Shown here one piece after another: positions 5,129 through 60,546 of a DNA stretch of 64,000 nucleotides; within the stretch, counting starts at the first letter, position 1; each line of letters opens with the position of its first letter. The stretch comes from Candidatus Brocadiia bacterium. Lineage in GTDB: Bacteria > Planctomycetota > Brocadiia > SM23-32. The notes below the pieces were generated by a model, which was not told the DNA's origin, did not search any database, and saw nothing but the letters and a program-made list of their open reading frames with translations. Where the stretch lies: NCBI GenBank assembly GCA_046538485.1, contig JBKHIT010000008.1, positions 35,549-99,548 on the forward strand, given 5' to 3'. The position numbers and the translations under genes were made by a program.

Positions 5129-5187
5129 ACTGAATCCATTAATTTACCAGGATATGGCACTCATCCCGCGAAGACCGTGCGCCCCGA

Positions 5188-5656: not shown

Positions 5657-5733
5657 TGCAAATATTTCTGCTCAACGCACATGGCTCGCTCCCACTTCAG
5701 AAGCAAATGAACCGCCCACAGGCAGGCAAACCA

Positions 5734-7062: not shown

Positions 7063-7085
7063 GTCGTCTTCTCCGCACGCAGAAT

Positions 7086-7247
7086 TCACTCGACGAGTTC
7101 GAACTGATCTTTCCCTACCCCACAAATGGGGCATTCCCAATCATCAGGAAGGTCTTCAAAAGACACGCCGGGATCGATTTCCGCGGCCGGATCACCTTTT
7201 TCGGGATCGTAAATATAACCACATACCTCACACCGATATTTTTCCAC
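7086..7247 (-). CDS. Rubredoxin (53 aa)
   Basis: The last 53 codons of track ORF 7086..7784 read (V/M)[52 protein letters not shown]. These are the two CxxCG knuckles and the spacing of rubredoxin. GTG start at 7247-7245 is preceded by AGGAGA plus 5 nt. The upstream part of the 232-aa ORF is antisense to the Gfo/Idh/MocA gene. Confidence 0.85.
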
Positions 7248-7436
7248 CTTTTTCTCCTGTTTTCCGTGAATTTCCGGGGCGAGAAGAGCGTCATTGTAAG
7301 TTTGCCTGTGGGCAGTGTCAACCACCCTTTTTTCCGTTTGATTTTGGGCGGGTCCCGTGTTACAAGAACCTTCTACTCGCCGTGTTTTGTTGTTTTTGGA
7401 AGACGAATATTTCCGCAGTATCAAAGGAGTGTATTT

Positions 7437-8588
7437 ATGTCGGCAGATAAGGTGCGAATTGGCATAGTTGGTGTTGGCGGTATGGGTTCCGGACATTGTA
7501 ACAGCTGCCAGAAGGTCGATGAGGTGGAACTGACCGGTGTGGCCGATATTGACGAAGACCGTGCGAAGGAGATCGGTGAGAAATACGATGTCCCGTATTT
7601 CACCTCCCACGAAGAACTCCTGGAGGCGGATCTTGCCGACGCGCTCGTCGTTGCCACGCCTCATTACTTTCACCCACCCATCGCCATCGATGGTTTCAAA
7701 GCGGGCCTTCATGTTCTGAGCGAAAAACCCATCGGCGTGCGCGTTGGATTCGCCGAGAAAATGGTCGAAGCCGCCGAAGAACACGATAAGATTTTCTGCG
7801 TGATGTTCCAGCGCCGTACGGAATCAGCCGTGCGGAAAGCCCGCGAACTCGTTGAAGCCGGTGAGCTCGGTGAGATCCACCGCACGCTTCTGGTATCACC
7901 GGAATTTCGCAGCCAGGCATATTATGATTCAGGGAGCTGGCGCGCCACATGGGCCGGCGAAGGGGGCGGACCAATGATGAACCAGGCCCCCCACATTATG
8001 GACATCTTCATCCTGCTCGGCGGTATGCCCTCCCGGGTCAATGGAACAACAAAGACCTGGATGCATGACATCGAAGTGGAAGATCATGCGGATGCCACCC
8101 TCGAGTATGAAAACGGTGCGACCGGTTATTTCTATGTCTCCACGTGCGAACCCGGTCCCGGCCAGATCATCCAGGTTTGGGGCGAAAAAGGCAAACTCCA
8201 GTTTATCGATGGTCAGCTCAGTTTTGCCCGCTACAAAACCCCTGTGAGTGAATTCAGCCGAGAAAATACCGAGATGTGGGGTAAACCGGAGACTGAAATG
8301 GTCGACCTGGAACTGCCGGAATGCGATACGGGCCATCACGTGATTCTCAGGAACTTTGCCCGATCCATTCTTGAAGGCGAACCTTTGATTTCACCCGGAG
8401 AAGTTGGCGTGAACCAACTTGAACTGGCCAACGCCATCGCCCTCTCATCGAATAAAGGTGAAGCCGTCGATATCCCGATCGACCGGGAAGCGTTCAACGC
8501 CCTGATGGAAGAACTTGCCGCCACCTCAAGTTACGACGAGTCTCAGCAGGAAGTGCACCGAGAAACTGACCCCCAGTTTGACGCCTGA
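7437..8588 (+). CDS. Gfo/Idh/MocA family oxidoreductase
   Basis: Track ORF 7047..8588, trimmed to ATG 7437 (AAAGGAG lies 7 nt upstream). [20 protein letters not shown] is a Rossmann N-terminus; HVLSEKPIG is the EKP motif. Confidence 0.85.
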
Positions 8589-8637
8589 GACTGTTATTGT
8601 TGAAACGGCGTGTCATTTTTTCTGAAGGAGGCCAAAA

Positions 8638-9666
8638 ATGGCTAAAATGAAAGCCGCAGTATGTCACGAACCATTCGACCTCACCATCGAGGAGGTTGAC
8701 AAACCTGAGCCGGGCGAGAGCGAAGTCGTCGTGAAGGTAAAAGCTACAGGCGTCTGCGGATCGGATGTTGACGGCTATATCGGCAAACACCCCTGGATTG
8801 ACCTGCCCATGATACTCGGACACGAATGCAGCGGCGTTGTGGATACTGTCGGGCCGGATGTAACGAAATTTGAGCCCGGCGATCCCGTCGTGGTCGAGCC
8901 GTTTTTTGTCTGCGGTGAATGTCCGAATTGCCTCAAAGGCGACTACAACATGTGCCGGGATATCACGATTATCGGGCATCAGGTCGATGGCTCTTTTGCG
9001 GAGTATATCCTGATGACAGAAAGGTTTTTGCATCCTCTGCCCGAGGCGGTGAGTTTTGAGGTAGGGGCGCTGGCCGAACCAATAAGCGGGGCCCTCCATG
9101 GCGTCGGGCGATGTAACCTGAACATTGGTGACTTTGTCGTTGTCCTGGGCTGCGGAACGATCGGTTATTTTTTGGTCCAACATGCGGTTAACAGTGGGGC
9201 CAAAGTACTCGTCACGGAACCCGAAGATTACAAAAGAGAGGCCGCCCTGGCCGTCGGAGCCGAATGGGTTCTCGACCCCACATCCGAATCCGTCGAAGAT
9301 AAGGTAATGGAAATCAGCGACGGGATAGGTGCCGATTGTGTGATGGAAGCCGTTGGTATCCAGGAAACAATCGGAAAAACCGTCTCCCTGGCCCGCAAGG
9401 GAGGAACCATTCTGCTCATGGGCTGGACCGGCAATGAAACAGACGATTTCGACTGCACGAATATGACATTGGACGAAATGACCGTGCTCGGCACGATGGG
9501 ATTTGCTTTCGATTTCCCCGTTACGCTCGACCTTCTGGCGCGCGATAAAGTCGATGCCGAACGTATTATCACCCACCGTTTTCCTCTCGATGAAGCCGAG
9601 GAAGCCCTCGAAACGCTTCACGAAAAACGGGACAATGTCTGGAAAGCCGCCCTCATCTTCGATTGA
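8638..9666 (+). CDS. Zinc-dependent alcohol/polyol dehydrogenase (MDR family)
   Basis: ORF track, 342 aa. Shows ATGVCGSDV, GHECSGVV, a structural-zinc Cys cluster (CGECPNCLKGDYNMC) and GCGTIG NAD-binding motifs. Confidence 0.85.
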   Translation: MAKMKAAVCHEPFDLTIEEVDKPEPGESEVVVKVKATGVCGSDVDGYIGKHPWIDLPMILGHECSGVVDTVGPDVTKFEPGDPVVVEPFFVCGECPNCLKGDYNMCRDITIIGHQVDGSFAEYILMTERFLHPLPEAVSFEVGALAEPISGALHGVGRCNLNIGDFVVVLGCGTIGYFLVQHAVNSGAKVLVTEPEDYKREAALAVGAEWVLDPTSESVEDKVMEISDGIGADCVMEAVGIQETIGKTVSLARKGGTILLMGWTGNETDDFDCTNMTLDEMTVLGTMGFAFDFPVTLDLLARDKVDAERIITHRFPLDEAEEALETLHEKRDNVWKAALIFD

Positions 9667-9687
9667 TCTCCCGGCACATTCCGAAGC

Positions 9688-9702
9688 GCCCGTTTAACGG
9701 GC
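9688..9702 (+). terminator. Short GC hairpin 3' of the dehydrogenase gene (weak terminator candidate)
   Basis: GCCCG-TTTAA-CGGGC lies 22 nt after the stop at 9666. No clear U-tract follows. Confidence 0.2.
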
Positions 9703-9882
9703 TCTCCGATTGTCCCGGCTTTGTTCCACGCGGCTTGGCCGCCGGATATCCGGCGTAATTGAGGCAGGCAAACGTTCGGAAATGGCAGGTAGCTGTAGGT
9801 CCACATCGCCGAGGCGGAACTGCCGTTGGTCGTTCTGCTGTTTTGCTCCGAGACCGAAAGTCCCAACAGACGCGACCGCGTT

Positions 9883-9911
9883 CTGAACTCCAGCCTCCGG
9901 CTGAAGTCCAG
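9883..9911 (-). repeat. Dispersed hairpin repeat unit (family R1), copy C
   Basis: The minus strand reads CTGGACTTCAGCC-GGA-GGCTGGAGTTCAG, flanked by GAGCGGA... and ...AACGCGG as in the other copies. It lies about 130 nt 3' of the co-oriented gene 10040..10903. Confidence 0.8.
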
Positions 9912-10039
9912 TCCGCTCATATGCCAGTGCCGATGATAAAAAATCGGCTGCACATCGCACTTACAAAAATCTCCGCACGAACGTGCCTTGCCAGCGCAAA
10001 CCGCTGGCTTTGCAATGCGTGCGGGATAGCGATCATATT

Positions 10040-10903
10040 TTATTTCATAAACGGGCTGAACGGGCTGATAAACCATAAGAACAAACCCAGAAGGACCAAA
10101 AGAATAAGACAACACCAGCTGGCGTGTCTTCGTTCCCGATCCTCTTTCTGGGCCTGAGTTTCGACAGGTTCCTCCCGGGACTTCCTCTTTTCTTCTTTCT
10201 GCCTTTGCTTCTCACACCGTTGAAGATTTCGATACAGGCAGATGTTCACGGTGAGGCCAAACGGCACTCCAAGCAAGATCAAGAGCGAAAACCACGCATC
10301 TGTCAGCCCGATATGGATATAGCGGAGGAACATCGTCGGGATTAACACAACAAGGCCGGCGGCGGCAAGAATAACAAGAAGGGCCAGAACCCGCCAGAAA
10401 TTCGGACGGATCAGCTCCTGGCTACGCTTGAGCGCTCTCCCGGCCCGTCGCCGGCCAAGAACGCTTTCGCAAGGTCCCAGAATGTATACAACCCCCAGAT
10501 AGATCCCGGGAATAATCAGCAATAAATATCCGACTGCAATTGCAAGGAGATACACCAGAGAGCAGACGAAGTAGTCCCACCAGTACCCCAAACCGCTTTT
10601 CAGTGCTTCCAAAACGTTGGGCGTCTTGTTCTCGCGCCGCGCAGCGTCAATTGCCACGATCAGCGAAGCAGACACCCAACAGAGCAATAATCTCTGGATC
10701 AGAAAAACGCCGAATTTGGAGCCGATGCCTGGCCAGTCGCTCACGGGAACGATCCTGGAGCTGGCCCGGCCCAACGCATAAATAGCAGCTCCCACCAGTG
10801 ATATTTTCAGGAGAGTCGCCCAGTGTGTCAGGAATATGGTCACTGCTTCCCGTATAATCCCTATGACGTCAATCTTACGCGACGGAAACTCTTTTTCGTT
10901 CAT
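10040..10903 (-). CDS. Polytopic membrane protein, unknown function
   Basis: ORF track, 287 aa. It has several long hydrophobic segments (e.g. LLKISLVGAAIYALG, LVYLLAIAVGYLLLIIPGIYLGVVYIL, VLALLVILAAAGLVVLIPTMF), a K/E-rich tail and a final hydrophobic helix. Confidence 0.65.
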   Translation of the reverse strand: MNEKEFPSRKIDVIGIIREAVTIFLTHWATLLKISLVGAAIYALGRASSRIVPVSDWPGIGSKFGVFLIQRLLLCWVSASLIVAIDAARRENKTPNVLEALKSGLGYWWDYFVCSLVYLLAIAVGYLLLIIPGIYLGVVYILGPCESVLGRRRAGRALKRSQELIRPNFWRVLALLVILAAAGLVVLIPTMFLRYIHIGLTDAWFSLLILLGVPFGLTVNICLYRNLQRCEKQRQKEEKRKSREEPVETQAQKEDRERRHASWCCLILLVLLGLFLWFISPFSPFMK

Positions 10904-11362
10904 AATAATTCCTGCCCCACAATCTTTGACGATCCTCCGGTAGCATAATATCCCAAAGCGAAGCCGTTTGAAAATGCAATCGATGCTACCACGCAGGAGT
11001 TACAGTCCGATTTCTTAAGCGGTATTTGGGGAATTTGTCAGAAAGAAAGCGTTCTCCGGCGGCTTGCCAGAACGCCCCTGTTCAGCCTGACGTCCGGGCC
11101 AAATAGGTTATTGCGAGGCCGGCGTTCGGCGCGGCGGAGCAATCCTTCTGGGCCACGGTTGGTTTACCCCATCCGGCTTCTGTTTTTCTTTCAGTCAATC
11201 GGTTCCCCTCTGGAGCCAGGCACCCCGATAGCCATGCAATGTGCGTTCGCTCCTGATCAGCCAGGATGAGAACAGAGCCCCCCGCGGGGGGCGATTCAGA
11301 CGAGATATTCCCCCTCGCACTTTATCGCGAGTTTACCGAAAGCGCCCCATATTGCGGGCAGC

Positions 11363-49954: not shown

Positions 49955-50095
49955 AGGCCGTAAACGCCTTTCTCGGGGAATACTCAGGAAAAATATATAA
50001 TAGCAAATTCGCTTGACCGCTGCAAGCAAAGGAAGTTAGTGTTTGTGGAAAACGACAGCATTCCTGTGCGAAAGACGGAAGCAAAAGGATTTCCG

Positions 50096-52369
50096 ATGGA
50101 AGAACTGGCCAAAATTCGTTGCAACAATACCTCAAATCGCAATCTGACTGGATATGGCGTCACCTATGGCGTCCCACTTCCTCAGGGACGCCTTCAGGAA
50201 CCCCAAAACGCTGCCCTCGCCATAAAACTCCCCGAGGGCTCCATTGCTCCAATTCAGTGGAAAATCGCCGAGAAATGGCCTGACGGGTCGGTCAGGTGGA
50301 TCGTGCTCGACTTTGAGATGGATCTGCCGGCCAACAAACAATCCAGTTTTGCCCTGGTGGCCGACGCCGAAACTCCCGACTATCCCAAACTGGAGATACA
50401 CGAAAATAATGCCAGTATCTCCGTCGCCAACAAACACCTGCGGGTTGAGGTTGAACGGAACTCTTTCTCCCTCTTCGAATCACTGTCGGTCAATGGGCAG
50501 GAATTGATTCAGCAGGGGGCCGATATCATCGTGGTCAACCCAAAAGGCAAACGCTATTACGCCAGTTTTACGCAAAATCTGGATGTCTCCATAGTCGAAC
50601 AAGGACCCGAACGGGTCGTTATTGAAAGCTCTGGGCGCCATACTGCCAGCGATGGCGATCAGCTGCTTTCTTTTCGTCTTCGCTACACCATAAGGCCCCA
50701 TGACCCGTGCATTCGCCTCTCCTATAAGATGGCCAATGAAGAAGAACCGGAGATGGGCGTTCACCTTGGCCGAATTTTCATGGAAATTCCTACGACACTC
50801 GGCCCCCGTCCAACACGATACGTCCGCCAAAAACACCACACCGAACTCTGGTTCACCCGGCCGGTCGAAATTCAGGAGAACGTTGAACTACAGGCCGGGA
50901 GTTTCATAAGCGAAATGGCCGAATCAGTCTATGGAAAAGCGCATTCGGGCAAGGTGGTCATACGCAACCTCCATAATTTTCGCGAAGACCTCAGCGATTA
51001 TCCCCACTACCTGCGGCCTGGAAACGCCCGTTCCGATATGAGCGGCGGTTTGCGCGCGGCATATCCTTTCCTGGCAACGGTTTCAGAAAATGGTTCTTTC
51101 ATCGGCTGGTTTTCCGAAATGGAGGCAAACCATCCCAAAGGGGTCGCTTCGGAACGCAATAAGATTCGTTTCGACATCTGGCCGCAATGGGCTGACAACC
51201 TCCGCCTCAACAGAGGGATGTCCAAAGAGCATGATATCTTCCTCTCGTTCGATGACCGGCGCCTATCCTTCGAAGATCTTGAATCTCGCTATTTCGATCA
51301 CGAAGTGATGGGATTCGGCATCTTTGCCGAAGGAGCCCCCCCGGTGAATTTCTCCATCGATCCCGAATACGCCCGTGAGTGTGAAGTTTTCGATATTCAT
51401 CGCTGGTTGCCTTACGACGAAGACCGGTACCTGAAAATCGAGACCAAAATGGGTACCATCGGCTCAAAAGGCGGCAAAATGTCACGTGGGATGCTCGATT
51501 ATGGCGACGGCATCATTCGGGACTGCAGCGCGAATAATGAAAACGATAGGATTCTTGACCGGTTCCGGGAATACTACCGCCGCGGCAAAGCGGAGTTCCG
51601 CCGGGAAGCTCTGATCTCTGCCCGTCACAACGCACATGTCGATTTGATTTCTTATGATCCGGATGAGCTCCGACAGGGCACGATGGCTGCACATTGTCCC
51701 AACCATAGCGACGGGGCGTGTTACCCCTCTCACATGTGGGTTGGCGGACTGCTGGCGGCGTTCTGCACCACCGGTGAGCCGGATTTCGAAGAAGCCGCCA
51801 TCTCCGTCGGCGAAAACATGCTCCGCTGGCAGGAAAAATGTCCTGAAGTCTTTTACTGCGACAGTCGGGAGGCCGGTTGGCCGATGCTGGCCTGGGTACA
51901 GCTCTGGCATCATAACCACGAACAGCGCTGGCTGGATGCCGCGGACCGTGTCTTCCAGTTCTACGCTGAGAAAGTGGATGAAGAGGGGAAAATAGTCTAT
52001 GAAATTCCGCACAAACTCGGGACTTTCCTGCAGGGTTACGGAGAGTTTATCGCGTGGCGGGGTTGTTTCCACTATTACGAAGCGAGCGGAAAAGAAGAGG
52101 TGAAAGATTTCCTCGTCGATGTCCTGAGTAAAGAAAATATCTACAAAATCACTCCGGCCAGAGTTGAAAAAGGTGGTTGGGCCTGCAATGACCTGTTCCC
52201 GGCCTGGGCTGTCTGGCAGCTGACCGGAGATGATAAGTTTCTCAAAGACAATTTCCCCTTCCTGGAATACATGATGGACAGAGAAGGAACTTTCCCATGG
52301 ACCGGCGTCGATGTCATGTATTACCTGAATGCCCTTCACGAACGCGGGGAACTCGAAGAATTCTGCTGA
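50096..52369 (+). CDS. Large hypothetical protein (757 aa), possibly a glycan-active enzyme with an alpha/alpha-toroid-like C-terminal half
   Basis: Track ORF 50039..52369, trimmed to ATG 50096 (AAAAGGA upstream). No motif assigned with confidence. The N-terminal beta-rich part (WPDGSVRWIVLDFEM) and C-terminal segments (HMWVGGLLAAFCTTGEPDFEEAA, GWPMLAWVQLW) recall glycoside hydrolase or lyase toroids. The product call is a guess. Confidence 0.6.
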   Translation: MEELAKIRCNNTSNRNLTGYGVTYGVPLPQGRLQEPQNAALAIKLPEGSIAPIQWKIAEKWPDGSVRWIVLDFEMDLPANKQSSFALVADAETPDYPKLEIHENNASISVANKHLRVEVERNSFSLFESLSVNGQELIQQGADIIVVNPKGKRYYASFTQNLDVSIVEQGPERVVIESSGRHTASDGDQLLSFRLRYTIRPHDPCIRLSYKMANEEEPEMGVHLGRIFMEIPTTLGPRPTRYVRQKHHTELWFTRPVEIQENVELQAGSFISEMAESVYGKAHSGKVVIRNLHNFREDLSDYPHYLRPGNARSDMSGGLRAAYPFLATVSENGSFIGWFSEMEANHPKGVASERNKIRFDIWPQWADNLRLNRGMSKEHDIFLSFDDRRLSFEDLESRYFDHEVMGFGIFAEGAPPVNFSIDPEYARECEVFDIHRWLPYDEDRYLKIETKMGTIGSKGGKMSRGMLDYGDGIIRDCSANNENDRILDRFREYYRRGKAEFRREALISARHNAHVDLISYDPDELRQGTMAAHCPNHSDGACYPSHMWVGGLLAAFCTTGEPDFEEAAISVGENMLRWQEKCPEVFYCDSREAGWPMLAWVQLWHHNHEQRWLDAADRVFQFYAEKVDEEGKIVYEIPHKLGTFLQGYGEFIAWRGCFHYYEASGKEEVKDFLVDVLSKENIYKITPARVEKGGWACNDLFPAWAVWQLTGDDKFLKDNFPFLEYMMDREGTFPWTGVDVMYYLNALHERGELEEFC

Positions 52370-52756: not shown

Positions 52757-53013
52757 TTATGGAGAAGCACAACATGTTGCGGGCTGAAGGCCCGCCTCAA
52801 TTTGCTGTTGTTTGGAAAGCGCGTTTCTTTATCAAACCTCAGGATAGTTGTCGCAGACCGCTTAGACTCGCCCGGGTCTTTCGACCCGGTTCATAGCGGG
52901 GATCGGGTGTGTCACATGCGCCTTTCGGAGGATACTGAGAAGGACAGTTCAGACGGCGTATAGAAACGCCGGTAGAGTTCCCGTAGTTCGTTTTGCAGGA
53001 GATTTCATCACAA

Positions 53014-54150
53014 ATGACGGAAAAGAATGCTGATTTGCCTGATCCACGAAAAGTGGCGCAGCAAGAGGCAGAACAAATCAAGAACGATTACGAATTCATT
53101 TTTGAAAAGAGTCTGAAACGGGCCATTGCCGACCGTCCATCGCTCGACCGAGAGCGTTTGTTCCGGGAACTGGTGGAGTTTCATCGGGAACGGATGAACA
53201 AAATCCCGCCCCGAGCGAAATACCCCGAGGCGGCTCCGTGGGTCGGGTACGTCATTGAACGTGACCGCGAGTTGCAGCGAATCTCGGGACTTTCCGACCG
53301 GGAAATGGCCCAGCTGCGGAGTCTCAATGACTACCTCCGGTTCAGGGGTTGGGGCAATCTTTGCCCTGTCAGCTCTGAAAAATGCCGGGTCGTTTATCTG
53401 CCCGACTCGGATCGGGGGGAATTTCATATAAAGAATGTCGATGACCCCCTCACGAACTGGGAACCGTCAGACGAGCCGCCCCCCTCACCCCGTTTTCCGG
53501 AACTCATGATGGATGGGGTGGGCGCGGGGCTTCATCTGGATGACGAGCCAGAGCAGATTTTTCCGCTTCCGATCCGGCAGATGTGCTCAAAACTCGCCGA
53601 AAATCTGCCGTCGGCCCTTGAGTTTCTACAACGATACTCACCGTTCTGGGGCGCGCAAAATCTGCTGCTGCACGACCGCCAGAAATGCAGCATCGCCATC
53701 GAAAAGACAAGCTATAATTTCATGGACGTTTATGAACCCGGCACATCCGGTGAGAGCCATATCAGCGGGATGGTCTGCCGGGAACCCAAAACCGAGCAAG
53801 GACGATACGTCGAACGAAAACGCAAAGAGTTCACCGAACGGATCGGACAGGATGAAGAGGGGCCCTGCGGAAAATTCTGGCAGGCGTGCGACCGCGCGGA
53901 ACAAATGCTGGCGGAATTGCTGTCGAAGGTAGATGTCACCATCGATGAAATACTGGAGCTTTTCACCACGACCTGGCCGGAAGGACTCAACAAAGCCGGC
54001 GCGGTTTTTCATCCGGATCAGCCCTACGCCTCATGGACACTGGTCACACACGCCCGGTTGCCGGATCAAGGAATGGTTTTACGCTGGCAGCGCAGCGCCG
54101 ATGGCGCGTATCCCGATAAACCGCAAGTGTTTGAATACCCGATGGGATAA
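53014..54150 (+). CDS. Hypothetical protein (378 aa); weak resemblance to Ntn-hydrolase / peptidase C45-type acyltransferases
   Basis: Track ORF 52993..54150 (TTG start), trimmed to ATG 53014. The only hint is ..EKCRVVYLPDSDRGEFHIKNVDDP.. (Cys followed by a beta-strand and an N-x-D block). Not verifiable here. Confidence 0.55.
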   Translation: MTEKNADLPDPRKVAQQEAEQIKNDYEFIFEKSLKRAIADRPSLDRERLFRELVEFHRERMNKIPPRAKYPEAAPWVGYVIERDRELQRISGLSDREMAQLRSLNDYLRFRGWGNLCPVSSEKCRVVYLPDSDRGEFHIKNVDDPLTNWEPSDEPPPSPRFPELMMDGVGAGLHLDDEPEQIFPLPIRQMCSKLAENLPSALEFLQRYSPFWGAQNLLLHDRQKCSIAIEKTSYNFMDVYEPGTSGESHISGMVCREPKTEQGRYVERKRKEFTERIGQDEEGPCGKFWQACDRAEQMLAELLSKVDVTIDEILELFTTTWPEGLNKAGAVFHPDQPYASWTLVTHARLPDQGMVLRWQRSADGAYPDKPQVFEYPMG

Positions 54151-54492: not shown

Positions 54493-57400
54493 TTACGGCT
54501 GAACTTCGATCTCCACGGGCTGGGTCGCATCGCGGACCTCCGGCTCGTAGTACTGATAGACTTCCGTCGGAGGCGTCTTGGCCTTAACGGGGTATTTGGC
54601 CCGCAGGTGATACGTGAACCGTACGGGTTCGTTGCCGACAATGCTCTCGAAATACAGGATCACCTGTCGACCGGTCAGGGAATATCGCTGAATCAAGCCC
54701 TGCTCTTTCAGGCGGTCAAAATCCTCCGTCATGACCTGAAAGCCCGGCGGAATGCCCAGATCAACAATTGTCATGCGGGCCACACCGCTCCGGTTGTAGC
54801 GGATCGTCGCCTCGCACGCTAATTTGTCGTCCGGACGCAACTTCGTGGTATCGTACGCTACATCGATGCTCATGGTCTTCTGGGTGGTCGGGGTTTTTCT
54901 CTCCCAGGGGAGGTAATGGGTGGCGACGATCTGGTAGGCAAAATTCGCTTCCCCGGCCGGTTCCAGAGATATCCGGTTGGGTCCGGGTTTCTGGTGTTCG
55001 CGCAGGCTGATCAGCCGGAAAACATCGCTGGTCTCCGGCGTGATGGTCAGTTCTCTGGCGAATTTTCCGTTGACCGAGATCGTGATCGGGAGGTCTTGTT
55101 TCAGTTCGGTTGCGGGCCCGGTGCCAGCAAGGAGGGCGCGCATCGCGTGTACAGTAGCCTGGGTGGAATGCCACGTGCCGGCTGAATCTTTCTCCTCGAT
55201 GAGCCAGGCCAGAGCTCTGTGCGCCGTGCCGAGATGAGATTGAGCTTTCAACATCGCGTATGCGGCCAGGGCCGTGGTTTCAATGTTCAGGACATTGCCC
55301 CGGGAGTGGGTCACACCCTCCGATTTGGAACTCCAGTGCGCAAGGTCTCCGTCCTCCTTTTTCGTGGCGTCAAGCATCTTAATTAAATCCCCGGCGCCGG
55401 ATCGCTCGCCCGCGACGAGCGCATTGGCGCAGACGGCAAGCGTGTAAGCGTCTTCGTCGCTCGATACGTTCTGTTCGACGTAGTCGAGGGCACGTGAAAG
55501 GTTGGAGTCTACGTTTCCCGACTCCGCCAGAGCCCATGCGATGTAGGCGGTTGTTCGGAGGACGGCGCCCTGGTAGGCGTTGATGGCACCTTCCTGGATG
55601 CCCCCCTGGGTCGGTTCCCATGAGCCATTGCGTTTTTGCTGCGAGAACAACCACCGGCGCGTTCGCTGTATGACGGCGGGATCGACCTCATAAACTTTCG
55701 CCATGTCGTTGAATTCCATCAGACCGTACGCTGTCAGAACGCTGTGGGCGGGCGCGTTTCCGAACCATTCGAATCCGCCCCCGCTGACTTCGTAGGAGAG
55801 CAGACGCTGGTAACCGAGGTTGATGTAATTGAGCGCTTTCATCTCGATTTCGGGCCTGGATTGATCCGTGCGGCGCATGTAGTCGAGCGCCAGAATGTTG
55901 GGGTATGTCACTGAAGACGTCTGTTCGAAACAGCCAAACGGTTTGCGGAAGATGCTGTCCAGTCCTTCCATCACCTGGCTGAAGGCGCCGGGATAGATTT
56001 TCACCAGCAGGTCGGAGGCGCCATCGATGGCCCGATCGGGAATCACGACCGTGCGGTTCAGTTTGCCGGTGAGGCGCCCGTTATCCGTCTGGACGATCTC
56101 TTTGCCGTCGGGTCGGACGCGGACCTTACGCCGGATCGCGTCGGCCATCTCGGATCCGAAAGCGCGAACGGTGAGGGTGTGGCGGCCGGGTTTGAGCGCG
56201 CGCAGTTTCATCGGGATACTCGTAACTTCCCGGGGACCGATTTCGAGCCGGCGTTCGGTCTCCCCGAGCATCTCGCACCAATCCGCATCGTCGACTTCCA
56301 GCCGGATCAGCTGGGTTTCGTCGAGATAGTTGTAGAGGGCGATCGGGACGCTGATTTCGTCGTGTTGGGTGAGGGCGACCGGGAAATCAATATCCACAAA
56401 GAAATCCTGAAACACCCGCAGCCCGAAGGTCTCCGCGCCCAATCTTCCCTGTCTCGAGACCGCGCTCATACTGATCCGCCAGGTGGTGATGGAATCGGCG
56501 AGCGGGACTTCCAGTTGAGCCCGGCCGGCCTCATCGGTAATAAGTTCCGGTTTCCAGAGAAGTGTTTCCGGGAAATAGTGTCGGACGCGGCTGGGGGCTT
56601 TCAAACTTTCATCTGCAGCCTTTTTGCGCCCCTTTGCGGCTCCGCGAACAGGGCTTCCATCAAGCGCTTCAGTCATCTCCGCAAACTTCTGGCGTGCGGC
56701 CATCCGGGCGGGAGACAGTGCCGGGAGGAGCAACCCGGCGAAGACGAGGAGCGCGAGAACGGGCAAGGCACCGCTGCGAACGGCTATCCAGACCGCGCGT
56801 TTTGTTGAAAGTTTCTGGCAGACAGAGTGTCCCGCAATTGACAGCGCGGGCAGCGCCGCAAACCAGAGACCGATCATAATCCCCGCTTCCAGCACAATTG
56901 TTTCTTCCGCCAGGCCCAACTCAGCTTCGGCGATTGCAAGGGTTAGGATCGATACGCTGGCTGCAATATAGGCGAAAGGCAAAAGCGTGGCGAATTTACG
57001 GAAAAGCGGCAGGTTGCTGACTCCGGGGCCCTTCCGGAATTTGAAAACCTTGGCTATGAGGGCTATCAACATGCCGATCCAGGCAATCACCCCAAAACTA
57101 CCGCTAAAAAGTTCGCCGTGGTAGCGCGCAAAAGCATTCTCGATAATTAGTTCATCAATAAGCAATCCCACGATGAGTGCTGTGACGGGAATAACCAGTG
57201 CCAACAACCAGCTTGCTGTCAGCCACCAGCATGCCCGTCGGAGTCGGTTCATCTCTTTTGCATTTAGCTCCGGCACCGGACGTCGTCTGAACAGTTTGTA
57301 AAGGCCGTAACCGACCATGGGCAGCACAAACAAGACATACAGTGCAAACGGGACCTGTGCGGCCAGTTTCAGGACAGCCCTGCGGTAGTTCACTTTCACT

Positions 57401-59670
57401 TTTCGAAATCGTCTCTGTTTTTCCTCAAATGAAATGCTCTGCGCTTTCCTCGGTGTGGCCGTTCCCTCGGCGGCGGAGAACAGCGCAACCCGGGCTTCTT
57501 TCAGTTGTGGTTCCGATTCCCCACGCGGCTCAATGGCCTCTTCAGCCGTCAGCGGCATATGGCCGTGAATCTCATAGGAAGGTTTGAGTATCTCTTCCTG
57601 AAGCGTGAAATAGACCCGTTCGAGTCCCGGGCGCATTTCCTGGAGAGCGAACACGGCCTCGTCCACTCCGGCCAGGCCCAGCGCCGCCTGTGTTGGTTTT
57701 CCTTCGGTCCCGGTTACCATGAACGTCAAGGTTGCGTTTTCCCCCGGACGGTACGTTTTTTTGTCCATTTTGGTCTCGATCGAGATCTGATCGGGTCGGT
57801 TGACCTGGACCACTTTTGCGTCGCTCACGATATTACCGTCGGGCAGGATGCGATACGCGTGGAGTTCGAGTGTTCCGAACAGGTCGGGCGGTAGATCGAG
57901 TGCAACGGATCCGCGCCCTTTCTCGATATCAAGGGCTTTGCTTAACATCGTCCGGCTGTTTTTCACGACATCCACGAAAACCCGGGCCCGTCGGTCGCCG
58001 GAGAGGACGGATACCTCAGCCGTTTCCCCCGCTTTATAAACGGCTTTGTCAGTGCGGAGGAGAAAAGCGTGGACCCGCTGATCGACGCGGAGAGGTCGGC
58101 TGACTTTCACCCGGCGCCCTCCGTTGTCTTCGGCTTCGATCGTGAGTTTCATGCGGGGGGACCGGGGGGTGATTTTGACTTTGGCGAGTCCATTCTCCGC
58201 GGTGCGTGTTCTGCGGCGATCAGCACCGATGATCAGTTCGGTCTGTGCCGGTCGGCCGTCGGGATATGACGTCACGATGTAGAGGATGTTTTCGACGCCC
58301 TGGACGAGTCTGCCGCTTTCCGGGAGCACGGCCACGCGTATCGGGCGGGTTGTGACGGTCAGTTCTTCAGTAATTTCCTGGGTATGACCGGCGGTATCGG
58401 TCACTTTAGCTTTGAGAGAAACCGTGGCATCTCCCTTTTTGCGGGCGGTGCCGGTGAAATGGCGTTTCAGAGGAAGCTGGAACGAAAAATGCCCTTCAGC
58501 GTTGGTTTTGCCCTCGGCACTGGCGAACTGACGGAACTTTTCCACAAACTCCGAGGCTGTGATCTGCACCTCCGCGTTCCGAACGGGTTTCCCGAATGTG
58601 TAGCGAGCGGTTATTTCGCCGATGAGCATTTCGCCGGGCCGGTAGAACGTTTTTCCGCAGCTTATGGTGGCCTTGAACTTCGGCAAACGATAACGTTTGA
58701 CCGTCACCGTGCGTTCCGATGTGGTGTCGCCGACATGGGCGGAGATGGTGTAGCGACCGGTGTTGACCTGATCGGCGAGCTGGAAATCGGCGGCCGCGAT
58801 CCCGTATTGGGAGGTTTTCAGCGTCTTTTTAAAGACCTTGTTGCCTTTAGCGTCTTTGACTTCGATCGTTGCCGGCTGGTCGGCGACGGGGTGGAGGTCG
58901 CTGGTGAAAAGCGACAGGGTCCGCATATGAATCGTCTGCCCGGGCTGGTAGAGCGGTTTATCGCTGCTGATCATTACCCGGAAAGACCGTTCGATGGTGA
59001 TGGTGCGGGAGACGACGTTTTTCCCCGCGGCTGATTTTGCGCGCACCCGGAGGGTATAATCGCCTTCCGATAGGTCCTCGGCCAGTTCTGGCTCAACCCG
59101 GGCGTTGCCGTGTTTGTCCGTTTTTGTTGTGCCTTCCCATATCTGTTTCCCACCGGGGTCCACCAGTGCGGCGGATACTTTCGCGTTAGGGACGGGTTTT
59201 GATTTTTTGCCGTCACGCACGAAAAGCCGAAACGACGCGATCTGTCCCGGTGTGACCGCCCAGCGTCCGTAGACCATAGTTTCCTGTGGTTTCGCGTGAC
59301 GCGTGGCGATGTGGCGGTCGATTCCGAGTAAGCCGATGGTTATCAGCGCGATGGCGGCGGCGGCGATTTTCCAGAACCGTTTGCTTCCCAGCCAATCTGC
59401 CTTCGGTTCGACGGGTTCAGAAGCCATGGTTTGACCCTCCATTCCTTTCTTTTGCGTCTGCGCCGCTTTTATGGTCCTTTCGGCCAGATCTTCGGGAGGA
59501 GGAGGTGCATCCCATTCCCGCAGAGCTTCCTTCTGGCGGCGTATCTTGTCCCGTGCCTGCCGGCATTCGCGGCAGATTTGCAGGTGTTTTTCTACCTGCT
59601 CTCTTTCATCTCCATCGAGCAGATCGAAGACCAGGTCATAGAGTTTTTGCTGGACTTCTTCGCACTTCAT
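54493..59670 (-). CDS. Anti-sigma factor (zf-HC2 type) fused to a full-length thioester alpha-2-macroglobulin with a 6-TM insertion (1725 aa)
   Basis: ORF track. aa 1-38 are MKCEEVQQKLYDLVFDLLDGDEREQVEKHLQICRECRQ (H29-x3-C33-x2-C36). A TM helix spans aa ~99-117. MG-type repeats include SDKPLYQPGQTIHMRTL, TDKAVYKAGETAEVSV and MDKKTYRPGENATLTF..GVDEAVFAL. Six hydrophobic helices span aa ~766-985. The A2M block is RHYFPETLLWKPELITD..SITTWRISMSAV (Y at aa 1032). The thioester block is FRKPFGCFEQTSSVTYPNILALDYM (C1247). The C-terminus is MG8/receptor-domain-like. It starts 16 nt after the ECF sigma gene. Confidence 0.85.
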   Translation of the reverse strand: MKCEEVQQKLYDLVFDLLDGDEREQVEKHLQICRECRQARDKIRRQKEALREWDAPPPPEDLAERTIKAAQTQKKGMEGQTMASEPVEPKADWLGSKRFWKIAAAAIALITIGLLGIDRHIATRHAKPQETMVYGRWAVTPGQIASFRLFVRDGKKSKPVPNAKVSAALVDPGGKQIWEGTTKTDKHGNARVEPELAEDLSEGDYTLRVRAKSAAGKNVVSRTITIERSFRVMISSDKPLYQPGQTIHMRTLSLFTSDLHPVADQPATIEVKDAKGNKVFKKTLKTSQYGIAAADFQLADQVNTGRYTISAHVGDTTSERTVTVKRYRLPKFKATISCGKTFYRPGEMLIGEITARYTFGKPVRNAEVQITASEFVEKFRQFASAEGKTNAEGHFSFQLPLKRHFTGTARKKGDATVSLKAKVTDTAGHTQEITEELTVTTRPIRVAVLPESGRLVQGVENILYIVTSYPDGRPAQTELIIGADRRRTRTAENGLAKVKITPRSPRMKLTIEAEDNGGRRVKVSRPLRVDQRVHAFLLRTDKAVYKAGETAEVSVLSGDRRARVFVDVVKNSRTMLSKALDIEKGRGSVALDLPPDLFGTLELHAYRILPDGNIVSDAKVVQVNRPDQISIETKMDKKTYRPGENATLTFMVTGTEGKPTQAALGLAGVDEAVFALQEMRPGLERVYFTLQEEILKPSYEIHGHMPLTAEEAIEPRGESEPQLKEARVALFSAAEGTATPRKAQSISFEEKQRRFRKVKVNYRRAVLKLAAQVPFALYVLFVLPMVGYGLYKLFRRRPVPELNAKEMNRLRRACWWLTASWLLALVIPVTALIVGLLIDELIIENAFARYHGELFSGSFGVIAWIGMLIALIAKVFKFRKGPGVSNLPLFRKFATLLPFAYIAASVSILTLAIAEAELGLAEETIVLEAGIMIGLWFAALPALSIAGHSVCQKLSTKRAVWIAVRSGALPVLALLVFAGLLLPALSPARMAARQKFAEMTEALDGSPVRGAAKGRKKAADESLKAPSRVRHYFPETLLWKPELITDEAGRAQLEVPLADSITTWRISMSAVSRQGRLGAETFGLRVFQDFFVDIDFPVALTQHDEISVPIALYNYLDETQLIRLEVDDADWCEMLGETERRLEIGPREVTSIPMKLRALKPGRHTLTVRAFGSEMADAIRRKVRVRPDGKEIVQTDNGRLTGKLNRTVVIPDRAIDGASDLLVKIYPGAFSQVMEGLDSIFRKPFGCFEQTSSVTYPNILALDYMRRTDQSRPEIEMKALNYINLGYQRLLSYEVSGGGFEWFGNAPAHSVLTAYGLMEFNDMAKVYEVDPAVIQRTRRWLFSQQKRNGSWEPTQGGIQEGAINAYQGAVLRTTAYIAWALAESGNVDSNLSRALDYVEQNVSSDEDAYTLAVCANALVAGERSGAGDLIKMLDATKKEDGDLAHWSSKSEGVTHSRGNVLNIETTALAAYAMLKAQSHLGTAHRALAWLIEEKDSAGTWHSTQATVHAMRALLAGTGPATELKQDLPITISVNGKFARELTITPETSDVFRLISLREHQKPGPNRISLEPAGEANFAYQIVATHYLPWERKTPTTQKTMSIDVAYDTTKLRPDDKLACEATIRYNRSGVARMTIVDLGIPPGFQVMTEDFDRLKEQGLIQRYSLTGRQVILYFESIVGNEPVRFTYHLRAKYPVKAKTPPTEVYQYYEPEVRDATQPVEIEVQP

Positions 59671-59686
59671 ATATTTTCACTTTCGG

Positions 59687-60304
59687 TTACTGGTTTTGAG
59701 AGACGTCATGAGCTTCGGCGATATCTTCCAGCTGTTTGCGGAGTTTCTGAAGGGCCAACCGCATTCTGGATTTGACGGTTCCCGGAGGTATCTGAACAGT
59801 ATCGGCAATTTCGGCGTAGGTCATCTCGTGGTAAATCTTGAGGATGAATACCTCTTTCTGTTCGGCGGGGAGTTCGCTGACGGCCTCCTCAATTCGTTCC
59901 CCAATTTCCTGGCACTCTATTCGGTGCGGAGGTGAGGGGTCAGATGAGCGGGGTTCCGGAGAACCGTTGAGCGGACGTGAATCTCTGCTTCCTTTTTTGC
60001 GCCAGTGCGAGCGACAGAGGTTCGTCGCGATTGTGTAGAGCCAGGTTTTGAACGAACTGTTTCCCCGGAAAGATTCGGCCTTCTGGAAGACCCGCATAAA
60101 CGTTTCCTGAAAAAGATCCGCCGCGACGGTGCGGTTTCCCGTCAGTTTGTAGAGCAGACCATGGAGTGGTTTTTCATACCGCCTTACCATCGTCTCAAAC
60201 ATGGTCATATCGCCCTCTATAAAGCCAAAAAGAAGGTCTTTGTCGCTTAACTCCGTACGATCCCCGCGATAAGAGCGACTCTGCGGTGCGGGGGTCGATT
60301 CCAT
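59687..60304 (-). CDS. ECF (extracytoplasmic function) RNA polymerase sigma-70 family factor
   Basis: ORF track, 205 aa. Region 2 is LYKLTGNRTVAADLFQETFMRVFQKAESFRGNSSFKTWLYTIATNLC. Region 4 is EVFILKIYHEMTYAEIADTVQIPPGTVKSRMRLALQKLR. RBS AGGAGA lies upstream of the ATG. Confidence 0.9.
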   Translation of the reverse strand: MESTPAPQSRSYRGDRTELSDKDLLFGFIEGDMTMFETMVRRYEKPLHGLLYKLTGNRTVAADLFQETFMRVFQKAESFRGNSSFKTWLYTIATNLCRSHWRKKGSRDSRPLNGSPEPRSSDPSPPHRIECQEIGERIEEAVSELPAEQKEVFILKIYHEMTYAEIADTVQIPPGTVKSRMRLALQKLRKQLEDIAEAHDVSQNQ

Positions 60305-60546
60305 TTGTGTCTCCTGTTAAGCGTAGACGCATGGGCGTCCCGAATTGATCACCAAAAAATGCCAAAAAAACAAAAAAACAGCTCCGACGGTCAATTCGGG
60401 GTGTGCATGATAACTTCTCGGTGGTGGGAACGACAATCAAAACAGCACCGATGGCGGGGAGATAAGGGGAAGAGACGGAAGGGGCATAAGGCACGTCAGG
60501 GACTCATCGGAGTGGAGCTTTGTTTCCGCGGTAGCGGAGATCTTAA

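Follow-up and report, generated by a model that had tools for sequence, protein, structure and literature searches.

Two types of alpha-2-macroglobulin (A2M) have been described in bacteria, both of them periplasmic protease traps: an ECAM-like type that comes with pbpC, and a MagD-like type (PMC5764988). In bacterial and eukaryotic A2Ms alike, cleavage of the bait activates the thioester and is accompanied by a large rearrangement of the protein (PMC5764988). MagD reaches the membrane via its partner MagB, which has a transmembrane (TM) helix (PMC5764988).

The locus described here also has to be compared with the anti-sigma factors. Many sensor domains are known among these, and one made of a thioester protein is unreported in the literature that we searched, in agreement with the first-pass annotation of this DNA, which knew of no described example. 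RseA and RsiW release their sigma factors by regulated proteolysis, and release occurs by ligand capture in RsiV, which binds lysozyme, and in the RsiP/PbpP pair. RsiV is a precedent for an anti-sigma factor that directly binds an attacking host enzyme. The RsiP system is covered by PMC8844934 and PMC8092216. The main text of the ECF classification paper contains no A2M-type anti-sigma sensor.

Gene organization and promoter

The window, i.e. the whole stretch of 64,000 nucleotides that was analysed, contains an operon of only two genes, in which an ECF sigma factor gene lies upstream of a long ORF that begins as an anti-sigma factor and continues as an A2M. Major features of the operon are summarized in Table 1. 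The first-pass annotation had reported two minus-strand genes 16 nt apart; both ORFs and the spacer were found in the sequence, which reads TAA ccgaaagtgaaaatat ATG from the sigma stop codon to the A2M start codon. All of the motifs that it had quoted could also be located, namely HLQICREC (aa 29), GVDEAVFAL (aa 668-676), RHYFPETLLW (aa 1030-1039) and GCFEQ (aa 1246-1250). The description of the locus as a putatively co-transcribed ECF sigma/anti-sigma pair, whose anti-sigma member carries a complete thioester A2M, holds.

The small ORF is indeed an ECF sigma factor, as had been proposed. It matches Sigma70_r2 (aa 39-105, 4e-21) and Sigma70_r4_2 (aa 136-188, 8.5e-17), and scores 117.8 bits against TIGR02937, for which the cutoff is 42.9. 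Pfam returned no match to sigma region 3 in the 205-aa protein, and its composition of regions 2 and 4 only, within about 170-220 aa, is that of ECF group 4. Its best NCBIfam equivalog is PRK12513, at 164 bits, which is under the cutoff of 206.

The promoter pattern RATCC-N17-RTCTA(A) was found at the same position in nine other loci of the same head class (class a, see below), in an alignment in which the surrounding DNA is otherwise unconserved. The pattern has a single match in the window, where 0.53 would be expected by chance, and ten in the 174 kb made up of the window and related loci; all ten lie directly upstream of a sigma gene. In the window the -35 element is GATCA, deviating from the consensus ATCC. 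The position of the pattern, and its occurrence only before the sigma gene, fit autoregulation of the putative operon.

The absence of pbpC was noted previously. No ORF of at least 150 aa in the window has a GT51 (pbpC-like) motif, which agrees with that statement but is a weak test of it, and no PBP domain was found among the called neighbours at 12 homologous loci (L094-L105). Near the operon, in the window and in the homologous loci, we found no linked site-1 or site-2 protease gene or other conserved partner.

Table 1. Features of the sigma factor/A2M operon (positions in the window; aa, residues of the 1725-aa protein)
Feature	Position	Strand	Basis or remark
Candidate ECF-type autoregulatory promoter, GATCA-N17-GTCTA	60324-60350	minus	about 20 nt upstream of sigma start codon
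ECF (group 4) sigma factor gene, 205 aa	59687-60304	minus	ORF, Pfam/NCBIfam
Spacer, 16 nt, sigma stop codon to anti-sigma/A2M start codon	59671-59686	minus	direct sequence read
Anti-sigma/A2M ORF, 1725 aa, stop codon included	54493-59670	minus	ORF, Pfam
Zinc-type anti-sigma domain (ZAS head) and flexible linker, aa 1-80	59431-59670	minus	zf-HC2
Conserved cytoplasmic juxtamembrane motif PVEPxxxWLGSKRFW, then TM1, aa 85-122	59305-59418	minus	hydropathy, AF2
MG1-MG6a array (MG2, MG3, A2M_BRD), periplasmic, aa 128-697	57580-59289	minus	Pfam, AF2
Pre-bundle periplasmic segment, second candidate cleavage region, aa 698-747	57430-57579	minus	pLDDT, alignment
Membrane module at bait position, one amphipathic helix then six-TM bundle, aa 748-985	56716-57429	minus	hydropathy, AF2
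Candidate bait, periplasmic disordered linker from TM7 to MG6b, aa 986-1028	56587-56715	minus	pLDDT, alignment
MG6b/MG7 (Pfam A2M) and first half of CUB, aa 1029-1228	55987-56586	minus	Pfam
Thioester domain (TED), aa 1229-1513	55132-55986	minus	TED_complement, 8.9e-49
Thioester motif GCFEQ, aa 1246-1250	55921-55935	minus	in TED
Second half of CUB and MG8/receptor-binding-type C-terminal domain, aa 1514-1725, and stop	54493-55131	minus	A2M_recep

Domain architecture of the long ORF

The long ORF encodes, in order, a ZAS head, a flexible linker, a juxtamembrane motif, TM1, MG1-6a, a six-TM bundle, a hypervariable linker and MG6b-MG7-CUB-TED(GCFEQ)-MG8. A Pfam search returned zf-HC2, MG2, MG3, A2M_BRD, A2M, TED_complement and A2M_recep, all above their gathering cutoffs and in the order that had been predicted.

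That the ORF starts as an anti-sigma domain was borne out by the zf-HC2 match, which covers aa 3-37 with 34.4-39.1 bits (cutoff 22.2). The NCBIfam model NF052375 'antisigma' reached 7.7e-12, below its curated cutoff. The head has the HxxxCxxC motif and the upstream Cys/His ligand that define ZAS domains, and all 18 heads that were aligned share its zinc ligands C3, H29, C33 and C36. In the AlphaFold2 (AF2) model its helices span residues 3-14, 20-32, 34-51 and 62-78, with a pLDDT of 85-94 over aa 1-50, and TM1 comes after them (hydropathy peak at aa 99-117, AF2 helix 97-122). The head would bind and inhibit the adjacent sigma factor, for which the strict synteny and the way sigma clade varies with head class give indirect support. 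The N-terminus has neither a signal peptide nor a lipobox and begins with the cytoplasmic ZAS domain, after which comes a TM helix. Within class a, no variation is seen at E88, P89, W93, L94, G95 and F99 of the juxtamembrane motif, and the motif is kept in headless members of the family too, e.g., MSYAPVEPELRWLGSRRFW.

The A2M part follows the canonical A2M/TEP domain order, and its fold matches CD109, C3, C4 and A2ML1 at E <1e-35. Pfam places A2M_BRD at aa 538-676, A2M at aa 1036-1125 (E 2.2e-20), TED_complement at aa 1229-1513 and A2M_recep at aa 1631-1713 (E 6.9e-16). The AF2 model of the MG array is all-beta with a pLDDT of 82-95, and the top Foldseek matches of MG1-MG6a are CD109, C4b, C3 and A2ML1, with E values down to 2.6e-40. 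GCFEQ conforms to the CxEQ thioester motif and is invariant in 120 of the 120 closest homologues; R1030 and the block F1033-L1037 are likewise invariant in the alignment of homologues.

Membrane module and candidate bait

The protein had been thought to cross the membrane once. This has to be corrected: hydropathy gives seven TM segments, one at aa 99-117 and six at about aa 767-985. TM segments were called from hydropathy together with AlphaFold, in which the six of the bundle are long helices with a pLDDT of 80-97. Modelled alone with AF2, the membrane module has a pLDDT of 89.6 and a pTM of 0.82. The predicted topology is N-terminus in and C-terminus out, and the K+R content of the loops alternates across the family as expected for it. 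The cytoplasmic loops of the bundle carry the conserved motifs RLFRRxP, PLLRK and SxxRxxW.

The membrane module has no Pfam match, and its best fold match in the PDB has an E value of 0.62, with a TM-score of 0.28 or lower, which we do not count as a match. When 1.84 billion representative proteins were searched with a profile of the module, 72 of them matched. Every match of at least 600 aa has A2M flanking motifs, the two short matches inspected are both fragments of A2M genes, and no stand-alone module was present among the matches. The bundle is restricted to the 7-TM A2M family and has no relatives outside it.

The bundle sits just before the linker that we regard as the candidate bait, unlike in any described A2M/TEP member. 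This linker has a pLDDT below 50 over aa 982-1021 and is hypervariable: among 103 homologues it is anywhere between 34 and 114 aa long (sd 16), and its sequence is unconserved. It ends directly N-terminal to RVRHYFPETLLW. The bait of human A2M precedes VRKYFPETWIW, which we take to be the equivalent place. The segment before the bundle consists of a variable P/E-rich stretch and the conserved block 'EARVALFSAAEG'. Its pLDDT is low as well (57-67 over aa about 671-720), and the distance from GVDEAVFAL to the first TM of the bundle varies fairly little in the 103 homologues (median 93 aa, sd 7). With the bundle at the bait position, the protein has to be pictured as a polytopic machine in the membrane and no longer as a soluble trap on a tether. 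The purpose of the bundle is left unexplained by a simple protease-trap model.

Homologue family and synteny

The 120 closest homologues are from PVC bacteria, with a few from elsewhere. Among PVC bacteria the family is common; it also occurs in Anaerolineae, Myxococcales and other groups. All 120 have the TM cluster along with GCFEQ, and about 80% have one of three types of cytoplasmic head; headless members exist. The 7-TM A2M family is larger, and the ZAS-A2M fusion represents one of its variants.

The first-pass annotation had asked whether an ECF sigma gene precedes every homologue. This is true of all the headed loci examined (12, 3 and 3 in classes a, b and d) but of none of the three headless ones (L092, L100 and L105). 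In class a, an orthologous sigma factor of 46-58% identity is encoded directly upstream in 11 of 11 metagenomic loci, retrieved by way of the head sequence, and at P0017. An ECF sigma gene is likewise upstream in three of three loci of class b (L001, L098, L102) and three of three of class d (L096, L103, L104), and in these two classes the sigma and A2M genes mostly overlap (L001, L096, L098, L103). The sigma factors fall into three clades, one for each head class, with identities of 46-61% within and 18-36% between clades. The class b and d heads received no anti-sigma domain call from Pfam or NCBIfam at curated cutoffs.

At one locus (L073) the sigma factor, a separate anti-sigma factor and the A2M are encoded by three overlapping genes, an unfused counterpart of the fusion. 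This arrangement indicates that this A2M clade can belong to an ECF operon. The headless members in turn indicate that the 7-TM A2M core does a job that does not depend on signalling, and the head could be a passive add-on.

Proposed mechanism and alternatives

Our main reading, to which we assign a probability of roughly one half, is that the locus is a two-gene self-regulated module whose anti-sigma factor doubles as a polytopic, eukaryote-like thioester A2M, and that bait cleavage leads to release of the sigma factor. At rest, the head would hold the sigma factor at the membrane. A protease entering the periplasm would cut the exposed linker beside the bundle, which would act as the bait, and the cut would trigger, as in other A2Ms, a conformational change that exposes the thioester and captures the attacker, using up the molecule. 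The cut and rearranged protein would then be unprotected, and its N-terminal fragment may be removed by general membrane and cytoplasmic proteolysis in the manner of RseA or RsiW. The freed sigma factor would transcribe its own promoter, replacing itself and the single-use trap, and perhaps unlinked genes too. In this chain we infer protease sensing, sigma binding, bait cleavage and sigma release from sequence features. Release by degradation is favoured over allosteric release because three unrelated heads, each with its own sigma clade, are joined to the same core by a poorly ordered linker.

Bait cleavage may be dispensable as the trigger. The head might couple sigma activity to the amount of intact A2M without a dedicated protease-sensing step, so that loss, turnover or insertion lag of the A2M frees the sigma factor and restores the level of a protein that is purely a membrane-anchored trap or structural protein. 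The operon itself is the sole promoter target detected, headless members exist, and the heads are modular and joined by a low-confidence linker, all of which would suit such a tether. We nevertheless consider it rather unlikely, since it leaves unexplained why headed forms strictly retain the thioester and the hypervariable exposed linker. It overlaps heavily with the bait-cleavage reading, and the sole difference is whether or not bait cleavage is the trigger.

It is likewise doubtful that the extracytoplasmic part senses a cue other than a protease, with the bundle relaying the signal across the membrane to the head. Such a cue might be membrane perturbation or a lipid-active agent acting on the bundle, or else a nucleophile or surface with which the thioester reacts, for example when the surface of a competitor or of prey, or the cell's own envelope, is covalently tagged. 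The confidently folded, family-restricted bundle argues for a role of this kind, as do the conserved cytoplasmic loop and juxtamembrane motifs, which a trap for soluble proteases does not obviously need. However, all landmarks of protease-activated A2Ms are kept, among them a disordered linker where the bait would be; a core shared by three unrelated heads speaks against a finely tuned allosteric relay; and headless members retain the same bundle loops.

The ZAS head itself might be the sensor, by thiol oxidation or zinc release as in RsrA, with the A2M only an effector or anchor. The invariant ligand set C-x25-H-x3-C-x2-C has the same spacing as in RsrA and other redox-sensing ZAS proteins. 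For many ZAS proteins, RsiW, ChrR and RslA among them, no redox-sensing role is known, however, and classes b, d and P0016, in which the zinc motif is missing, keep the A2M core and the adjacent sigma gene, making a sensing role of the head quite improbable. That a frameshift or assembly error joined small anti-sigma, membrane-protein and A2M genes, an idea that rests on the unusual length and composite nature of the ORF and for which no support was found, can for practical purposes be discarded, since the same uninterrupted head-to-tail architecture recurs on many independent contigs, in at least 100 homologues of 41-95% identity from independent samples and phyla and in the full-length loci L081, L088, L089, L090 and L094, and the membrane module never stands alone.

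Only tentatively, a complement-like thioester protein may here serve as a transmembrane signalling receptor, in which a cut in a bait tethered to a dedicated, family-specific 7-TM module at the periplasmic side brings about sigma release in the cytoplasm. Read in this way, the locus would encode a bacterial 'innate-immune' sensor that covalently captures an attacking protease and reports the event to the transcription machinery. If the bait-cleavage reading is right, a suicide inhibitor would report its own consumption, a simple design for sensing attack and replacing a single-use defence protein. To the two known types of bacterial A2M the family would then add a third, hitherto unrecognised one that is polytopic and eukaryote-like and spans three independently paired sigma/head lineages as well as headless forms. 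With only two genes and a defined promoter motif, it would also be a tractable system for reading out A2M conformation across a membrane. The bundle, having neither homologues nor a fold match, poses a structural question of its own. That the sequence is more similar to CD109, A2ML1 and A2M than to ECAM bears on the relationship between bacterial and animal thioester proteins, and may bear on the origin of eukaryotic TEPs.

Comparison with known systems

The sequence of the protein resembles eukaryotic A2ML1, CD109 and A2M most closely, rather than ECAM or MagD. Its matches include human A2M, CD109 and A2ML1 at 1e-63 to 1e-68, and, far more weakly, ECAM at 1e-7 (5a42) and SaA2M at 3e-8 (4u48). 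The sequence matches, the thioester and the missing pbpC agree with the earlier view that it is of neither the ECAM/pbpC nor the MagD type.

Like the type I proteins ECAM/YfhM and SaA2M, it is a large multi-MG protein at the periplasmic face of the inner membrane with a CxEQ motif, a TED and a candidate for their bait-type activation site (PMC5764988), and presumably shares their protease-trapping role (PMC5764988). It differs from ECAM/SaA2M in having seven TM helices and an anti-sigma head in place of a lipoprotein anchor, and in being paired with an ECF sigma factor rather than with a pbpC (PBP1c) partner. Membership of type I was rejected: there is no lipobox and no pbpC, and the bacterial-type MG models score under their cutoffs (bMG3, 29.3 against 34.9 bits; bMG10, 20.8 against 26.2).

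With MagD (type II, P. aeruginosa mag operon/YfaS) it shares the A2M fold and the association with the inner membrane. MagD has no thioester and is encoded within an operon of six genes, whereas the protein described here has an invariant thioester, a membrane anchor within its own polypeptide and an operon of two genes, one of which encodes a sigma factor. Type II membership was rejected on the presence of the thioester and on the two genes found instead of the six-gene mag/yfa operon.

The best sequence matches are eukaryotic TEPs (A2ML1, CD109, A2M, C3 and TEP1), with a fold match to CD109 (9fx3) at E 2.6e-40, and the eukaryote-type models MG2, MG3, A2M_BRD, A2M, TED_complement and A2M_recep all score above cutoff. 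CD109 is attached to the membrane via a GPI anchor, and we know of no polytopic eukaryotic member. In contrast to the eukaryotic TEPs, the protein described here is bacterial, has a six-TM bundle at the bait/anaphylatoxin position and carries a predicted transcription-factor-binding head on the cytoplasmic side.

Finally, the protein resembles RseA, RsiW, RsiV and RsiP in its N-terminal anti-sigma domain, TM helix, extracytoplasmic sensor and operon with an ECF sigma factor. Compared with the single-pass ZAS/class I anti-sigma factors, its sensor is a thioester A2M of about 1600 aa with six extra TM helices.

General features of the operon

The first-pass annotation had described two ORFs on the minus strand, one for an ECF sigma factor and one for an anti-sigma factor fused to an alpha-2-macroglobulin (A2M). 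Both are present as claimed, with lengths of 205 aa and 1725 aa and a gap of 16 nt between them, read from the sequence. The smaller protein is indeed an ECF sigma factor: it carries Sigma70_r2 and Sigma70_r4_2 and scores 117.8 bits against TIGR02937 (cutoff 42.9), with no sigma region 3 found by Pfam. The domain order expected of the larger protein was obtained with every Pfam model above its gathering cutoff, and all of the motifs quoted for it were found, the GCFEQ of the thioester block lying at aa 1246-1250. The absence of pbpC was borne out by a weak test, as no GT51/pbpC-like motif occurs in window ORFs of at least 150 aa. Coordinates are collected in the table.

Coordinates of the operon, its encoded domains and the related loci discussed (aa, residues of the 1725-aa protein)
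Feature	Position	Strand	Basis or description
Candidate promoter copy GATCAATTCGGGACGCCCATGCGTCTA	window 60324-60350	minus	
ECF sigma factor ORF	window 59687-60304	minus	
Anti-sigma/A2M ORF	window 54493-59670	minus	
zf-HC2	aa 3-37		Pfam
Juxtamembrane motif PVEPxxxWLGSRRFW, followed by TM1	window 59305-59418 (aa 85-122)	minus	
TM1	aa 99-117		hydropathy
MG2 (two stretches) and MG3	after zf-HC2		Pfam
A2M_BRD	aa 538-676		Pfam
Six bundle TM segments	~aa 767-791, 814-838, 855-877, 893-915, 925-947, 960-985		hydropathy
A2M	aa 1036-1125		Pfam
TED_complement	aa 1229-1513		Pfam, E 8.9e-49
A2M_recep	aa 1631-1713		Pfam
385-aa ORF	window 52993-54150	plus	no Pfam match
776-aa protein	window 50039-52369	plus	PcRGLX-like N-terminal domains, rhamnogalacturonan lyase-related type
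L073 ECF sigma factor	3322-3948		
L073 putative anti-sigma factor, 562 aa	3945-5633		N-terminal helical region, TM helix, TPR-containing periplasmic part
L073 A2M	5605-10983		without TM insert
L004 A2M, 1888 aa	4779-10977		Sedimentisphaerales MAG
L019 A2M, longest ORF 2249 aa	5122-11871		
L019 sigma-like ORF	5114-5713		
L022 A2M	5608-10386		without six-TM insert
L047 A2M	5935-10662		without six-TM insert
L105 ORF, 160 aa	3315-3797		N-terminal TM segment, no Pfam match

The neighbours of the operon are unrelated genes, among them those for a class III aminotransferase, a PcRGLX-like protein, Obg, a BNR protein and, judged from its sequence without a Pfam scan, a Gfo/Idh/MocA-like oxidoreductase. 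The opposite strand carries, downstream of the operon, the 385-aa ORF and beyond it the gene for the 776-aa protein, neither of which is kept beside A2M homologues. Across the homologous loci examined there is no conserved neighbour other than the sigma factor gene.

A membrane module at the bait position

The annotation had the large protein crossing the membrane once. Hydropathy analysis instead gives seven transmembrane (TM) segments, TM1 and six more, and the latter cluster fills a gap of 360 residues between the A2M_BRD and A2M models that corresponds to the bait position. An AlphaFold model of aa 1-1200, built on a 42-row alignment (mean pLDDT 82.4, pTM 0.60), places helices at aa 3-14, 20-32, 34-51 and 62-78 in the cytoplasmic N-terminal domain, or head, and TM1 in a helix at aa 97-122; the MG array is all-beta, and long helices follow at aa 748-984 with a pLDDT of about 80-90. 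Modelled by itself, the membrane module reaches a pLDDT of 89.6 and a pTM of 0.82. The mean number of lysines and arginines in successive loops of the bundle is 5.2, 0.7, 3.9, 1.1 and 2.4, an alternation seen family-wide that fits a predicted topology with the N-terminus inside and both halves of the A2M in the periplasm.

The isolated module has no match in Pfam, and a Foldseek search of its model against the PDB gave no fold match (best E 0.62, TM-scores of 0.28 or less), leaving a rhomboid, site-2 protease, transporter or GPCR fold unsupported. No stand-alone relatives of the bundle were found when 1.84 billion representative proteins were searched exhaustively with its profile: of the 72 hits, every one of at least 600 aa has the flanking A2M motifs, and the two short ones inspected (P0122 and P0135) are fragments of A2M genes. 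The module at the bait position is enlarged, to 8 to 12 predicted TM helices, in the homologues P0008, P0024 and P0115 (2051 aa) and at the loci L019 and L020; the longest L019 ORF overlaps a sigma-like ORF and may be fused to the sigma factor.

The cytoplasmic loops of the bundle hold the conserved motifs RLFRRxP, RxRRxxAxxAxPLLRK and SxxRxxWxxxSR, and the juxtamembrane segment before TM1 is likewise conserved. Because these motifs are kept even in members that have no head, the cytoplasmic face must do more than hold the head; possible roles are packing with TM1, shielding of TM1 from site-2 protease, or binding of a partner protein. The PVEPxxxWLGSRRFW motif is kept in PVC-type 7-TM members whether or not they have a head, and comparison of N-termini shows that relatives with only a signal peptide lack it, a pattern suggesting that the motif and the six-TM bundle act jointly.

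Family distribution and head classes

A search of 5.8 billion proteins returned 1305 hits at E <=1e-10, of which the best 120 were analysed. These are 1640-1860 aa long, with 41-95% identity and 95-100% query coverage, and come from Planctomycetota/Phycisphaerae, Verrucomicrobiota, Kiritimatiellae, Thermoanaerobaculaceae and other MAGs; the top homologue (95% identity) is labelled 'Planctomycetes bacterium', which makes a Planctomycetota genome the probable source of the window. In all 120, GCFEQ is present and TM segments cluster at the bait position; it is at the N-terminus that they differ. Class a, with a zinc-type anti-sigma (ZAS) head, comprises 23 of the 120, plus P0016. About 40 belong to class b, whose head of roughly 110 aa begins '...ELTLKLLDGEL...' and has no zinc motif, and about 28 to class d, with a head of some 50-60 aa containing '...DGLLREYARTGGPGDDE...'. 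The remaining class, c (about 20), is headless and begins at the juxtamembrane motif 'MSYAPVEPELRWLGSRRFW'.

In 18 aligned class-a sequences, C3, H29, C33 and C36 of the head are invariant and make up the complete four-ligand ZAS set, with the spacing of RsrA; E88, P89, W93, L94, G95 and F99 of the juxtamembrane segment are also invariant. The head of P0016 (aa 1-60, …VSDFVYDLLDAGERRQVEEKIKSDAAWRRAY…) is class-a-like, but the His and Cys zinc ligands have been lost from an otherwise unchanged architecture, and at least one lineage therefore seems able to do without zinc binding. Class b heads are not recognised by Pfam and match NF052375 only below threshold (4.2e-6), and class d heads match neither; the putative anti-sigma role of both is assigned from synteny.

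When one genome per GTDB species was scanned, relatives, 7-TM forms counted, turned up in at least 590 genomes, from which 80 loci were kept. Among these, the 7-TM form is found in PVC, Anaerolineae, Myxococcales and Acidiferrales MAGs, and in many relatives from Armatimonadota, Hydrogenedentota and Acidobacteriota the six-TM insert is missing and an N-terminal signal or anchor is all that is present. Eukaryote-like A2Ms of this kind, with a GCFEQTSS-type thioester (L021-L060 and L062-L080, for example L022 and L047), form a broad family that spans these three phyla, Cloacimonadota, WOR-3 and others, and some of its members have one additional hydrophobic segment near aa 580-670. The L004 protein has five predicted TM helices before the MG array and no soluble head, with an ECF sigma factor gene overlapping the A2M start codon; its N-terminus may be a fourth, polytopic type of head.

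Linkage to sigma factors

The annotation had asked whether homologues are always preceded by an ECF sigma factor, and this holds for all headed loci examined. In a metagenome scan seeded with an alignment of six class-a heads, an orthologous ECF sigma factor gene (phmmer E 1e-31 to 1e-59) lies immediately upstream on the same strand at 11 of 11 loci, and on every contig long enough to show it the head is continuous with a complete A2M; the P0017 locus has the same class-a arrangement, with the ECF sigma factor upstream. The gene is likewise directly upstream at three of three class b loci (L001, L098 and L102, with start-codon overlap in the first two) and at three of three class d loci (L096, L103 and L104, again with overlap in the first two). 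It does not hold for the headless loci L092, L100 and L105, none of which has an ECF sigma factor directly upstream. At L105, a Kiritimatiellae locus, the headless gene is preceded by the 160-aa ORF.

The sigma factors form three clades that match the head classes, with identities of 46-61% within clades and 18-36% between them. The same A2M core has thus come to be combined with three different sigma/head lineages, which speaks for a functional coupling. At L073 there is an unfused counterpart, in which three overlapping ORFs encode a sigma factor, a separate putative anti-sigma factor and an A2M; the bait position of this A2M holds a very long insert of roughly 400 aa, rich in acidic residues and lysine.

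A candidate operon-specific promoter

Alignment of 10 loci reveals an ATC at -35 and a TC-A at -10, both conserved and a fixed distance apart within otherwise unalignable DNA, about 20 nt before GGAG and the sigma factor start codon. Nine of them, the window included, match RATC[C/A]-N17-RTCTA; the -10 element of L086 is ATCAAA. The pattern occurs once in the 64-kb window (0.53 expected by chance) and 10 times in the 174 kb of the window and class-a loci, each time at this position upstream of the sigma factor gene, two of the 10 (L094 and L095) being on contigs of one sample. It looks like the usual ECF autoregulatory promoter. Because no second copy was found in the window or related loci, no regulon past the operon is definable, and the operon is the sole visible target within the 174 kb searched. 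A generic scan of the operon for sigma-70 promoters and terminators gave no more hits than in shuffled sequence.

Candidate bait segments and proposed mechanism

The segment that separates the last TM helix from the invariant R-x-R-x-x-FPETLLW block has a hypervariable sequence and ranges from 34 to 114 aa in 103 homologues (median 67), whereas the distance between GVDEAVFAL and the first TM helix of the bundle is far steadier (median 93 aa, sd 7); in the AlphaFold model, aa 982-1021 have a pLDDT below 50. The bait of human A2M precedes VRKYFPETWIW, at a position equivalent to this disordered linker, which is our candidate bait. A stretch rich in proline and glutamate at about aa 700-722 (modelled pLDDT 57-65) is a weaker candidate.

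What computation shows is the architecture together with a predicted topology, the invariance of the thioester and of the zinc ligands, the strict pairing of head with sigma factor, and a candidate operon-specific promoter. In A2Ms, cleavage of the bait is established to cause a large rearrangement and exposure of the thioester (PMC5764988). By the mechanism we propose, the head would keep the sigma factor at the membrane until a periplasmic protease cut the exposed linker beside the bundle. The cut would trigger a large rearrangement in which the thioester is exposed, the protease captured and the molecule spent. General proteolysis would then clear the remnant, as for RseA or RsiW, and the freed sigma factor would re-express itself and the trap. 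We prefer such degradative release to allosteric release because the heads, of three unrelated kinds, are attached to one and the same core by a linker modelled with low confidence (pLDDT <50 at aa 54-59 and 70-83).

The main element that this mechanism leaves unexplained is the role of the six-TM bundle. Rival readings are that the protein is a stoichiometric tether with no dedicated trigger, or that the bundle or the thioester senses something other than proteases. Redox sensing by the ZAS head is weakened as an explanation and was set aside, since zinc-less heads keep the same architecture. An artefactual fusion is excluded by the recurrence of that architecture on independent contigs.

Relation to known A2Ms

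The literature searched contains no paper that combines anti-sigma or ECF sigma factors with macroglobulin or thioester proteins in bacteria, and nothing relevant on zf-HC2 with macroglobulin, on sigma factors with macroglobulin in Planctomycetes, or on bait regions with TM helices. The ECF reclassification paper names neither A2M nor MG2 nor macroglobulin in its main text, and an ECF catalogue may carry a bare listing of this architecture. Single members have been named 'anti-sigma factor RsiW' or 'YfaS' by automated annotation.

The solved structures nearest in sequence are eukaryotic, namely A2ML1 (7q1y, 6.5e-68) and CD109 (8s3o, 8.9e-67), followed by human A2M (~1e-63), C3 (~5e-49) and TEP1 (6e-46). 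The bacterial structures are far weaker matches (SaA2M, 4u48, 3e-8; ECAM, 5a42, 1e-7), and the bacterial models bMG3 and bMG10 fall below their cutoffs. The fold search agrees, with CD109 (9fx3) ranking first at E 2.6e-40 and ECAM 45th. Two types of bacterial A2M are recognised: type I, which has a thioester and is partnered with pbpC, and type II (MagD), which is thioester-less and encoded within an operon of six genes (PMC5764988). Unlike the ECAM-type proteins of type I, the window protein has no lipobox, no pbpC partner and no close sequence kinship to them, and it shares none of the defining features of type II. It is a member of the A2M/TEP superfamily outside both described bacterial types, and we rate it as a putative new type of anti-sigma factor sensor and, among bacterial A2Ms, as a new class that is polytopic.
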